Source of the DNA: Acidobacteriaceae bacterium
GTDB taxonomy: Bacteria > Acidobacteriota > Terriglobia > Terriglobales > Acidobacteriaceae
NCBI GenBank assembly: GCA_040003205.1
Contig: JBDUDA010000001.1
Location: forward strand, 1 to 44,277
DNA length: 44,277 bases
Direction of reading: 5' to 3'
Below are positions 40,873 through 43,818 of the stretch, piece by piece. The position numbers and the translations under genes were made by a program. Each line of letters starts with the position of its first letter. The stretch's first letter is position 1. The notes below the pieces were generated by a model. It saw only the letters and a program-made list of their open reading frames with translations, ran no database searches and was not told where the DNA came from.

Positions 40873-43818
40873 ATGCTCACTGGCTCCGAAATTCGTCGCA
40901 AGTTTTTGGATTACTTCGTCCAGCATGGACATAGAGAAGTCCATTCGTCATCGCTCGTGCCAGCGAATGACCCCACGCTCCTATTTACCAATGCGGGGAT
41001 GAACCAGTTCAAAGATGTCTTTCTCGGCCTGGAAAAGCGCGACTATAAAACGGCAACGACTTCGCAGAAGTGCGTCCGCGCCGGAGGCAAGCACAACGAT
41101 CTCGAGAACGTAGGATTCACCAACCGTCATCACACGTTTTTCGAGATGCTGGGCAATTTTTCTTTCGGAGACTATTTCAAGAAAGACGCCATCGCTCATG
41201 CCTGGGAGCTGATCACTTCCGGCAAGTGGTTCGGTATTCCAAAAGAGAAGCTCTACGCGACGATTTTCAAGGGCGAGAATGGTGTCCCTCGCGACAGCGA
41301 AGCCTATGACTTATGGCTCGGCCAGGGCTTATTCAAAGATCGGATCTTTGAGTTGGGCGCGAAAGATAATTTCTGGCAGATGGGCGACACCGGGCCGTGC
41401 GGCCCCAGCAGCGAGATTCATTACGACATGGGCCCGCCAGCTTCTGATCAAGGGCACACCGATTGCGCGTTCGGATGCGAATGTGGACGCTACGTCGAAA
41501 TCTGGAATCTCGTGTTCATGCAATTTGACCGGGACTCTGGCGGAAAGCTAAATCCGCTGCCGAAACCGTCCATTGATACGGGGATGGGATTAGAGCGAGT
41601 GGCGGCGGTGTTGCAAGGCAAGATTTCGAATTACGACACGGATTTGTTTGTGCCGCTGATTGAGAGAGCGGCAGATTTAACGAGCAGCACTGATGTAAGA
41701 ACGGACCGTGTGGGGACGGGCGCCCCCGCCCGTCCAGTCGAGCAAAGCTCGACAAGAGGTTCGACCGCAACGCAATCAAACGGAGCTTCGCTCCGTCGGA
41801 CGGGCGAGGGCGCCCGTCCCCACACGAGTGGTGGCAACGCCGGCAATCAGCACGCGGCTTCTCTCCGTGTGATTGCCGATCACTCTCGGGCTGCGACTTT
41901 TCTCATTTCAGATGGAGTACTGCCTGCGAACGATGGCCGTGGGTATGTGCTGCGGAAGATTATTCGCAGGGCCATCACTCATGGGAGATTGCTTGGTCAA
42001 ACAAAACCATTCCTGCACGAAATGGTTTTCGCAGTTCGCGATCTGATGCAGGACGCGTTTCCCGAGATCATCGAATCTTCGGACAAAGTTTCGAATGTCG
42101 TCCTAGAAGAAGAGCACCGATTTGCACACACGCTCGCCCTCGGCCTTCCGAAGTTGGAGGAAGCGATTCGACTCAGCGCGACGACCCGCATGGGTGCTGA
42201 GGCGGAGGTCATCCCCAAAGGTCAGAAGCTACCGCAATTACCCGGCACCACGGCCTTCACTCTGTATGACACGTTTGGCATGCCTCTCGATTTCATGCAG
42301 GATGCCGCCCGCGATCAAGGAATCGAATTTGATCAATCGGGCTTCGACCGCGCCATGCAGGAACAGCGGGAGCGCGCCCGCGCATCCTGGAAAGGCGCAG
42401 CCAAACAAACCGCCAATCCCGCCTACCAGCAGCTTCCCAAATCTGATTTTGAAGGCTACTACCAGACTCGCTCCGCGAGCTGCGAAGTGTTGGCCATCAT
42501 CAAGAATGGACAGGGCGCGCCGGAACTTTCTCCTGGCGACGAGGGTGAAGTCATTCTTGGTCACACTCCGTTCTACGCGGAATCCGGCGGACAGGTCGGC
42601 GATCGCGGATGGTTTTACAGCGATGACCACAACACTATCGTCGCCGAAGTTAAGGGATGCTACTACCCGGTACAGGGCGTGCGCGCGCATCAGGTGGTGG
42701 TGAAATCCCCACCCTCCGCAAAAAACGCGGGAGGATGGGGCACCCGGGGGATTCGTGTGGGAGACAAAGTTGACGCTGTCGTGGACACCGGAATTCGCGA
42801 ATCTACCATGCGCAATCATACGGCCACGCATGTTCTTCAGGCGGGATTGCGCGAAGTCCTCGGGAAGCATGTGAAGCAGGCTGGATCGCTGGTTGCTCCC
42901 AACCATCTGCGCTTCGACTTCTCTCACTTCACTTCTGTCGCGGATGAAGAGTTGCAAGACATCGAAGACCTGATCAACAAAGAAGTTTTGCGTAATCAGA
43001 AAATCGAAGTCATTCCCGACGTGCCGATCGATGTTGCCATCAATGAATACAAGGCGATGGCATTGTTCGGAGAAAAATACGGCGACCGCGTGCGCGTTAT
43101 AAAGATTGGAGACTTCTCTACCGAGCTTTGTGGAGGCCTGCACACTGGCGCTACCGGCGAAATCGGATTGATTAAAGTTTTGAAAGAAGGCAGCGTTTCT
43201 TCTGGAGTGCGACGCATTGAGGCTGTGACCGGGGAAGGATCTTTAAAACACTTTCAGAAAGATCATGAGCTTGAGAACGTTGTATCTGCATTTGTTAGTC
43301 CTACCCTTTCGCAAAAAGCGCGAAAGGATGGGGCACCCTTGGTTGAATTTTCTCCCGCTGAGGCTCTGAAGATCGAGCTCGACAAGAAAGATTCTGAGAT
43401 CAAGCGGCTTTCGCGTGAGCTTGATCAGGCGCGCATGAAGTCGGCTTCTTCTACCGTCGCGTCCGCTGGCGAAAATATTAAAGATGTCGGCGGAATCAAA
43501 GTGCTTGCGCATCGCGTAGACAACCTTGAGCGCCAGCAGATGCGCACGCTGGTGGATCAGCTTCGCGACAAATTAGGTTCCGGCGTTGTAGTGCTCGGGT
43601 CCGCGAATGACGGAAATGTGTCGCTCATCGTCGGCGTCACCAGGGATTTGACCGCTCGCATTCAGGCTGGCAAAGTCATCGGACCTATTGCGCAGAAGGT
43701 TGGTGGTAAGGGAGGCGGACGCCCTGATCTGGCCGAGGCCGGCGGAAAAACTCCCGAGACTCTGGACGCGGCCTTGGCAGAGGTGTATAGGGTAGTTGAG
43801 TCGCTGCTGGGCGCTTAG
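40873..43818 (+). CDS. alaS: alanine--tRNA ligase (elongated by three in-frame palindromic insertions)
   Basis: 981 aa. Contains [35 protein letters not shown], editing-domain HTATHVL and C-Ala [15 protein letters not shown]. The frame is uninterrupted. Confidence 0.95.
41707..41826 (+). repeat. 120-nt palindromic element inserted in-frame in alaS (codons 279-318)
   Basis: The 29-nt terminal inverted repeats are cgtgtggggacgggcgcccccgcccgtcc and ggacgggcgagggcgcccgtccccacacg, matching at 28 of 29 positions. Each arm is itself a 9-bp hairpin. Internal hairpins are gtcgagc-aaa-gctcgac (41737-41753) and cggagc-ttc-gctccg (41781-41795). Confidence 0.85.
42711..42745 (+). repeat. ~35-nt hairpin element in-frame in alaS (copy 1)
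   Basis: accctccgcaaaaaacgcgggaggatggggcaccc, flanked by aatcccc / ggggatt. It encodes ...[14 protein letters not shown]... Confidence 0.75.
43303..43338 (+). repeat. ~36-nt hairpin element in-frame in alaS (copy 2)
   Basis: accctttcgcaaaaagcgcgaaaggatggggcaccc. It encodes ...[15 protein letters not shown]... and has the same architecture as 42711-42745, with compensatory stem changes. Confidence 0.75.

Follow-up and report, generated by a model that had tools for sequence, protein, structure and literature searches.

An in-frame REP doublet in the alanyl-tRNA synthetase gene of an Acidobacteriaceae bacterium

Introduction

Repetitive extragenic palindromes (REPs), as described in E. coli and Pseudomonas, are units of 20–40 nt built on a G+C-rich hairpin with a 5′ GT[A/G]G tag; their dispersed copies are mostly intergenic, fall into sub-families distinguished by compensatory changes in the stem, occur as inverted pairs capable of forming one larger hairpin (REPINs, REP doublets forming hairpins), and flank the genes of REP-associated tyrosine transposases (RAYTs) (PMC3733652). 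Here, we report on a doublet of this kind that lies within alaS, the gene of the essential alanyl-tRNA synthetase (AlaRS), of an Acidobacteriaceae bacterium (GCA_040003205.1). The gene is encoded in positions 1–44,277 of contig JBDUDA010000001.1, and we refer to this whole stretch as the window.

REPs with a GTAG tag constitute the GTAG REP superfamily, in which a GTGG variant has been recorded for the Opitutus terrae family GTAG-20 (Di Nocera et al. 2013, PMC3733652). The same work lists intragenic REPs in O. terrae, Thauera, Xanthomonas, Erythrobacter and others, where units or dimers are read in frame as 20–40 residues, with glycyl- and isoleucyl-tRNA synthetases, uvrA/B/C, recB and DNA ligase among the hosts. 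It also describes a GGGGWSAS motif in repeats flanking some tyrosine transposases, termed TIRYTs; the TIRYTs of Acidobacteria form a distinct group, for which the paper does not state that they carry this motif. In Rickettsia, palindromic elements (RPEs) of ~100–150 bp reside in frame in numerous genes that are unrelated to one another, some of them essential, and are thought to be located at sites compatible with the protein fold (Ogata et al. 2000, 2002; cited through PMC10969869 and PMC3733652). Bacterial MITEs (miniature transposable elements with inverted repeats), such as Correia/NEMIS, RUP and ERIC, share with the element reported here their small size, non-autonomous nature, terminal inverted repeats and occasional presence in open reading frames (ORFs). 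We found no description in the literature of the repeat family analysed below, or of intragenic REPs generally, in Acidobacteria or Terriglobia, and those parts of the text and supplements of the Di Nocera et al. catalogue that were accessible to us contain no entry for it.

Results

A palindrome within alaS

The AlaRS encoded in the window matches the AlaRS chains of the PDB with E = 7e-144 (phmmer). Its homologues go by the name alanine--tRNA ligase and contain the domains PF01411, PF07973 and PF02272. The original prediction, made from the letters of the window alone, placed a 120-nt palindromic element exactly on 40 codons of this gene, and both the coordinates and the reading-frame arithmetic agree with it: 834 nt (41707 − 40873, or 278 × 3) precede the element and its last nucleotide is the 954th of the gene (41826 − 40873 + 1, or 318 × 3), making it codon-aligned. 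Recomputation also reproduced the anatomy that had been described. The terminal arms (41707–41735 and 41798–41826) match at 28 of 29 inverted positions, with complementarity reaching 44 nt at 86%; each arm folds into a perfect 9-bp hairpin (GGACGGGCG n4 CGCCCGTCC), and two inner hairpins read GTCGAGC-AAA-GCTCGAC (41737–41753) and ACGGAGC-TTC-GCTCCGT (41780–41796). The G+C content reaches 0.69 in the element versus ~0.52–0.59 in its flanks. Because the minimum free energy of the element RNA is −91.5 kcal/mol, compared to −47.0 ± 3.8 in shuffled sequences (n = 200; z = −11.6; none of the 200 as good), and the 24-nt arm core does not occur once in 100 shuffles of the window, the palindrome is far beyond chance expectation. 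The coordinates of the element, its parts and the other features are collected in Table 1.

An E-value search of positions 40000–44277 against Rfam returned no family at threshold; a plant miRNA hit on the palindrome was the only match (29.9 bits versus a gathering threshold of 53) and is taken as chance. The doublet was also considered as a terminator, a candidate that we rejected since a terminator scan identified no intrinsic-terminator-like site in alaS. On the minus strand, two ORFs overlap the element (41516–41779, 87 residues; 41631–41846, 71 residues); they are most likely by-products of a stop-free palindrome.

An insert as discrete and strongly structured as this one, in an essential gene, might be removed before the mature protein arises, as an intein, an intron or through programmed bypassing, or might be an artefact of assembly, and this discreteness is the only point that speaks for either. 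The 40 residues are below the size of an intein, homologues display just the three AlaRS Pfam domains, and neither an intron nor any other Rfam family reaches threshold, so an intein and a self-splicing intron were rejected. Moreover, all orthologues bearing REP sequence, in a set composed of full-length called proteins, remain in frame through the loop at many insert lengths. A misassembly, likewise, is excluded by independent assemblies: the ENA metagenome scaffold L002 (alaS 96.5% nt identical; L numbers denote the related loci collected for comparison) bears the identical 120 nt, the NCBI metagenome-assembled genome (MAG) L001 (alaS 79% nt identical) has the same doublet at the same place, and identical or near-identical doublets are present in assemblies from ENA, NCBI and JGI. 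Removal or artefact thus retains next to no probability, and we treat the segment as a genuine, probably translated part of alaS.

Table 1. Coordinates of alaS, its repeat inserts and related features (positions in the window unless a locus is named)
Feature	Position	Strand	Remarks
alaS (alanine--tRNA ligase)	40873–43818	+	981 aa, intact ORF; host gene of the element
REP doublet (REPIN-like)	41707–41826	+	two convergent units, tags outermost; codons 279–318 exactly
Left REP unit	41707–41753	+	read in unit frame 'fwd0', 15 residues
Left unit, tag GTGG	41710–41713	+	
Left unit, hairpin 1	41714–41722/41727–41735	+	
Left unit, hairpin 2	41737–41743/41747–41753	+	
Spacer between units	41754–41779	+	fast-evolving; 44% identity to L001 plus a 15-nt indel
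Right REP unit	41780–41826	−	read in unit frame 'rev1', 15 residues; 100% identical to the L001 copy
Right unit, hairpin 2	41780–41786/41790–41796	−	
Right unit, hairpin 1	41798–41806/41811–41819	−	
Right unit, tag (as CCAC)	41820–41823	−	
Second hairpin repeat, in frame in alaS	42707–42745	+	CCCCACCCTCCGC-AAAAAAC-GCGGGAGGATGGGG-CACCC; read ..AKNAGGWGT..
Third in-frame repeat in alaS	43300–43338	+	family of 42707–42745, other frame; read ..QKARKDGAP..
Other repeat sites in the window	983–1045, 3521–3633, 10897–10992, 14943–15070, 27724–27827, 33965–34190, 37395–37474, 40010–40063		
RAYT gene	L059:6972–7460	+	162 aa; NF047646 83.4 bits (cutoff 80)
RAYT gene	L017:747–1232	+	161 aa; NF047646 84.2 bits (cutoff 80)
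Y1_Tnp-like ORF, truncated	L001:5673–6038	−	121 aa; PF01797 24.7 bits; ~4 kb upstream of alaS

A REP family of the Terriglobia

The two halves of the element are copies of a single unit in opposite orientation, each consisting of a CGTGT-GGGGAC..GTCC hairpin followed by a GAGC-RAA-GCTC hairpin. Scanning GTDB species genomes for the pattern GTGGGGAC N13-17 GTCC N3-5 GAGCNAAGCTC gave at least 120 stretches, and all listed matches belong to MAGs of Terriglobia/Acidobacteriaceae, with several in a single genome. Among the 120 matches listed, 119 are located outside alaS and one inside it; these sister copies in related Terriglobia sustain the earlier proposal of a REP-like repeat residing in frame in an essential aminoacyl-tRNA synthetase. 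The unit extends over ~47 nt; its GT[G/A]G tag is followed by a G+C-rich hairpin of 9 bp and then by one of 7 bp, GAGC-RAA-GCTC. Its commonest variant is GTGGGGACAGCCGCCCTCGGCTGTCC.., and the stem variant of the window, GGACGGGCG, is also present at loci other than alaS (e.g. L121, L040 and L073).

A profile built from the pattern matches identified 198 copies in the window and the collected related loci. Two of them are the halves of the alaS element (nhmmer; 41704–41761 (+), E = 8e-14; 41777–41828 (−), E = 7e-12), and neither this profile nor the arm core with up to three mismatches revealed a further copy in the 44-kb window. In 163 near-full-length copies, the tag reads GTGG in 152 and GTAG in 10; GTAG is the tag in alaS-resident units of L125, L126, L129, L205, L206 and L207. 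No ORF spans 74 of the 163 well-aligned copies, which are clearly non-coding, and hairpin integrity is equal inside and outside genes. Where two copies lie within 300 nt of each other (31 pairs), 28 pairs are arranged '+-' with gaps of 7–91 nt, two are '++', one is '--' and none is '-+'. As the great majority of close pairs share the convergent arrangement, the 120-nt element, with a profile-defined gap of 15 nt, represents the standard doublet of the family, that is, the REPIN architecture.

A tblastn search with E. coli RayT detected Y1-transposase ORFs in L059, L017, L001 and L027. Those of L059 and L017 score above the cutoff of NCBIfam NF047646, the equivalog model 'REP-associated tyrosine transposase', contain the HUH motif MPDH(S/V)HMIF and the Y-x2-NPV motif as Y-L-x-(D/E)-NPV, and share 32% identity with E. 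coli RayT over the core. At each of the two loci, one alaS-family unit ends 8–11 nt upstream of the start codon, another starts 7–30 nt past the stop codon, and a further upstream unit forms a doublet. Because its units flank RAYT genes, the family possesses the defining REP–RAYT features in related genomes. The window itself contains no RAYT. The truncated Y1_Tnp-like ORF of L001 shares its contig with an AlaRS orthologue 83% identical to that of the window, and in the syntenic region of the window (~37250–37570) there are REP-like repeats only, with no Y1_Tnp-like ORF. All-against-all clustering of ORFs at the 120 loci revealed no recurrent neighbour gene beside the units, and ORFs between units ~1 kb apart, considered as possible transposases, were rejected as ordinary genes (cytochrome b, TyrRS and an oxidoreductase).

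When compared to the REP/REPIN–RAYT systems of E. coli and Pseudomonas, the Terriglobia family shares the tagged G+C-rich hairpin, with the tag in its GTGG form as in O. terrae GTAG-20, the inverted doublets, the compensatory stem changes among sub-families and the RAYT genes flanked by units; in related Terriglobia genomes its copies are also numerous and scattered, with most of them between genes. It differs in three respects: the unit has a second 7-bp hairpin and is therefore ~47 nt long as opposed to 20–40 nt, the units flanking the RAYT genes are on one strand, and the share of intragenic copies is high. The commonest variant, GGGGACAG, fits the GGGGWSAS motif, whereas the arms in the window, GGGGACGG, miss it by one position. 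From the bacterial MITEs it is set apart by its arms, which are self-folding tagged hairpins rather than the ends of DDE-type insertion sequences, and by the enzyme, which is of the HUH/Y1 type. In addition, the sequences bordering the element, ..AACGGAC and AGTGGTG.. (..GAACGGAC and AGTGGTGG..), share no direct repeat, so that a target-site duplication is absent, which argues against a MITE derived from an insertion sequence. Of the initial 'MITE/REP-like' assignment, the REP part thus holds and the MITE part does not, given the GTGG/GTAG tag, the missing duplication and the unit-flanked RAYT genes. The element is a member of the GTAG/GTGG-tagged REP/REPIN–RAYT class and not a new type of system.

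The AlaRS loop and its history

In the alignment with E. coli AlaRS (PDB 3hxu), residues 276 and 330 of the window protein correspond to residues 276 and 279, leaving 51 extra residues in the former. The alignment confirms the predicted location between the DxDLF..LI and SLRVIADH blocks and assigns the insert to the first inter-helix loop past the catalytic core, after the DxDLF..LI helix and before the SLRVIADH helix. Between ..LI and SLRV the window protein has the 66 residues originally counted; the E. coli figure, given in the original prediction as about 20, is 15. The inserted peptide is of low complexity (Gly/Ala/Arg/Pro/Ser/Thr) and has no match in the PDB. An AlphaFold2 model of the full protein shows helices at residues 259–271 and 328–347 and an unstructured coil at 272–334, with a predicted local distance difference test score (pLDDT) of 24–33; the model as a whole is weak (mean pLDDT 53.8, predicted template modelling score 0.33; 45 close homologues) and serves as soft support only. 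Together, the 3hxu alignment and this low-confidence model suggest that the residues at the insert likely constitute an exposed, disordered loop.

To follow the loop through related bacteria, we used a set consisting of the window protein and its 120 best database homologues, all from Terriglobales (68–97% identity, 922–1038 aa). In ~93 of these 121 proteins (about 77%) the loop is REP-derived, in ~23 it is native, and a few carry other short sequences, so the insertion, initially expected to be lineage- or strain-specific, is neither strain-specific nor recent. The native loop is a conserved stretch of 12 residues, TG(A/T)SLKKELDKEAHTKSAA. A metagenome scan yielded mostly distant AlaRS and added six alaS loci with REP units; in the distant Acidobacteria the loop has 16–25 residues, in some cases, e.g. 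TGINEKKELEAEDKTKSAA, with a recognisable kinship to the native form, and in no case holds a REP peptide, which implies that the native loop is ancestral and the REP state derived within Terriglobales. The expectation that distant AlaRS would have no residues homologous to the insert is also borne out, with a 2-residue gap in E. coli and 16–25-residue loops unrelated to it in other Acidobacteria.

The allelic states of the loop are diverse. With the native allele (TGASLKKELDKEAHTKSAA) as reference, the window loop has exchanged a native segment of 12 residues for the insert, at a net gain of 41 residues; the span and frame of the predicted 40-codon insert therefore stand, while its description as a clean insertion does not. 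Similarly, between L003 and L004, 36 nt of native sequence are swapped for 63 nt holding one unit, and native and REP-bearing alleles are found in proteins just 5.6–6.3% apart. A single '+' unit occupies the loop in L004, L126 and L127, and a single '−' unit, read in two frames, that of L128 (GQPGAAVPT) and L129 (ASLRGADEGVRPY). L125 has a tandem '++' pair, the window, L001 and L205–L208 have the '+-' doublet, and some orthologues bear three-unit combinations. Other repeat families fill the loop in L142 and L148 (peptides SQKRDVGHP; GLQPCH..GTGFSPY). The AlaRS loop thus looks like a recurrent permissive hotspot, and, as judged from the compared sequences, the insert is old and widespread and has been repeatedly reworked. 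The neighbour-joining tree is star-like (all sequences 14–18% from the query) and too unresolved for counts of gains and losses.

A second hypervariable region of AlaRS is found at residues 428–456 (about 42154–42240), from TLDxGL to AFKLY; it varies from 26 to 133 residues in Terriglobales orthologues, with 46 in the window, and looks like a site of variable helical insertions that are not repeat-derived.

Hairpins, peptide and selection

The alaS genes of the window and L001 share 79.3% nt identity and differ at 41% of third codon positions. Within the units, by contrast with this background divergence of 21%, only 3 of 93 nt differ (1 of 31 third positions), and the right unit shows no difference at all. 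Because third positions are conserved in the arms while the spacer and synonymous sites drift, selection at the protein level cannot explain the arms. Across alaS-resident units, a perfect stem 1 of 8–10 bp is kept in 16 of the 18 distinct units in spite of at least nine different stem sequences (GGACGGGCG, GGACAGCCG, GGACGGCCG, GGACGGGTC, GGACGGGCA, GGGCGGACG, GAACGGCCG, GGACGGGTG and GGACGGGGC), and stem 2 is likewise variable in sequence. Stems were counted for each sequence separately; MAFFT placed no gaps, although loop lengths vary (3 or 4 nt). As the left and right units of L205–L208 carry different stems, the conserved features are the local hairpins and not the long 44-bp pairing. On this evidence, the alaS units behave as live members of the family rather than as decaying debris.

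One way to account for these observations, in line with the effect on expression that the original prediction offered as an alternative, is that the doublet has been co-opted and its hairpins are retained for a role in alaS, for example by slowing the ribosome where the catalytic core meets the helical tRNA-recognition domain, by influencing mRNA half-life or by binding a protein. The near-identity of the arms next to a drifting spacer, the compensatory changes that preserve the hairpins in 16 of 18 alaS-resident units, the very stable predicted structure of the element and the presence of REP sequence in the loop of most sampled orthologues are all in line with such a role. Nevertheless, equally intact hairpins are found between genes as well as within 20 or more unrelated genes, which makes intactness a property of the family and not of alaS. 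Furthermore, ~23 orthologues do without a REP, some of them only 5.6% away from REP-bearing ones, the number, orientation and frame of the units vary by lineage, and the long-range pairing of the arms is lost in L205–L208. For distant alaS pairs, unit identity is 0.70–0.85, which does not by itself point to a constraint specific to alaS, and compensatory evolution in place cannot be told apart from a scenario in which other copies replaced or converted the units. We consequently regard co-option as rather unlikely.

Alternatively, the 40-residue peptide could be the selected feature, for instance as a new binding or regulatory loop of AlaRS, with the palindrome being incidental. In agreement with this, the motifs VGTGAxARPxEQxSA and SGASLRRTxEGxRxH recur in many orthologues, and the frame is always preserved. 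Yet where the loop holds units in a different frame or orientation, they are read as unrelated peptides, namely GQPGAAVPT and ASLRGADEGVRPY in the two single-unit alleles mentioned above and GLRPGRAGEGTRPYAS in others, and the conservation includes third codon positions, which places it at the DNA level. The peptide is, moreover, of low complexity, has no relative in the PDB and is predicted, albeit by a weak model, to be coil. Selection on the peptide is thus very improbable, more so than co-option of the hairpins.

Units in other genes and other repeats in alaS

None of the six frames of the consensus unit contains a stop codon, and 84–95% of individual copies are open in a given frame. Outside alaS, ~70 of 190 copies lie within ORFs that run on for 60 codons or more to either side. 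Pfam scans, which covered the 40 longest unit-spanning ORFs, placed at least 25 of the ~190 copies in frame between or within recognised domains of real genes, in ORFs with Pfam domains to either side of the copy, so the intragenic share amounts to at least 13%. Among the hosts are Lhr helicase (at three loci, with three units at one of them), class II ribonucleotide reductase (RNR), MutS2, RecG, UvrC (a doublet), ATP-dependent DNA ligase and RsmG. Others are xanthine dehydrogenase, agmatine deiminase, a GHMP kinase, an S9 peptidase with a doublet, an ABC transporter, an E2 acyltransferase and a ThiL/PurM-like protein with an AIRS domain. The Lhr-type helicase with three in-frame units (L088:4772–7999, minus strand) bears them between its DEAD-associated and winged-helix domains, and Lhr genes with family units are also present in L016 and L045.

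Besides the doublet, alaS contains two further in-frame inserts (Table 1). Both belong to a second hairpin family of the form CCCACCCT-stem-AAAAAAC-stem-AGGATGGGG-CACCC, with a 13-bp stem, which is unrelated to the REP doublet and is found outside alaS as well; at both sites, its presence is polymorphic among orthologues. The window is also dense in other families of intergenic repeats (TGTCATCCTGAGCG.., AGGGATGCTTCGACT..), none related to the doublet; one example is a pair of 68-nt repeats, 97% identical (38604–38671 and 40134–40201), which flank a T2SSE/PilT-like ORF (38769–40010).

Discussion

In our view, the 120-nt element is very probably a REP doublet of REPIN-like form, belonging to a family abundant in Terriglobia, that has settled in frame in a permissive loop of AlaRS. 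Since units of the family directly flank RAYT (HUH/Y1) genes, its origin most likely lies in the mobilisation or copying of single-stranded DNA by a RAYT-type enzyme. In an ancestor within the Terriglobales, the element would have landed between the positions equivalent to E. coli residues 276 and 279, replacing the 12-residue native segment. Its survival in an essential gene may be explained by a unit free of stop codons in six frames, an insert length that preserves the frame and a loop that tolerates additional residues, and it would be translated as a low-complexity, probably disordered peptide. Subsequently, the loop would have been remodelled, now holding one to three or more units in both orientations and several frames, other families or the native sequence, and the arms could have been kept intact either by selection on the hairpins, as substrates of RAYT or of another DNA- or RNA-directed process, or by homogenisation against genomic REPs.

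Several observations weigh against this interpretation. Translation of the segment and its disorder are predictions, the latter drawn in part from a poor structural model. No other copy of the family is present in the 44-kb window, which covers only a part of this genome. In contrast to the textbook inverted REPtron, the two units closest to each RAYT gene share one strand. Native and REP-bearing alleles differ by replacement and not by clean insertion, and among the alleles compared there is no transposition event, no pair of empty and filled sites and no target-site signature. Finally, the arms are so strongly conserved that the element could be functional in alaS instead of a tolerated passenger.

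Events of this type, in which a REP resides in frame in a gene, are known, but apparently not yet from this phylum. As in the intragenic REPs of other bacteria (PMC3733652), the hosts comprise a tRNA synthetase and genes of repair and replication (here alaS, UvrC, RecG, MutS2, Lhr and DNA ligase), and the excess of such hosts echoes the findings of Di Nocera et al. in other phyla. The present case differs in that alaS is absent from their list of hosts, one loop is occupied in most of an order and re-used by several unit types and repeat families, and a single gene bears three repeat inserts from two families. With the Rickettsia RPEs the family shares the recurrent presence of a palindrome read in frame in functional genes (alaS and at least 25 copies elsewhere); we treat the likeness as one of behaviour and not of membership, with no Rfam family matched and no sequence relationship apparent. 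The Terriglobia element comes from another phylum and from soil bacteria that are free-living and have large genomes, and it is a dimer of tagged REP units for which a RAYT partner can be identified.

Going further, it is conceivable, although we consider it doubtful, that the REPs and REPINs of Terriglobia form a maintained intragenic population, with at least one in eight copies in frame in genes and with the arms in alaS kept near-invariant by RAYT-mediated homogenisation or by a role of the RNA or DNA at domain boundaries. Some genes of this intragenic set, such as alaS, class II RNR, UvrC, RecG, MutS2 and Lhr, are ones for which an essential function or a central part in DNA repair would be expected. 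If true, this would be a counterpart of the 'protein-coding palindromes' of Rickettsia in free-living bacteria with large genomes, endowed with an identifiable transposase partner.

In the annotation of Acidobacteria, palindromes of this stop-free type give rise to spurious ORFs on either strand and lengthen the annotated proteins, and such repeats probably seed spurious 'hypothetical proteins'; at the same time, they flag permissive insertion sites in AlaRS and other enzymes. The locus is of interest to specialists for the colonisation of one loop across an order, the three inserts in an essential gene and the conservation of the arms beyond that of synonymous sites. It demonstrates that an essential, highly conserved enzyme can bear three selfish-repeat inserts and persist. 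Native, one-, two- and multi-unit alleles of the same loop in close relatives, together with a recognisable RAYT partner, provide the comparative material of a natural system in which to study how REPs and REPINs enter and persist in coding regions, whether their hairpins are upheld by selection or by gene conversion, and whether the inserts seed new protein loops.

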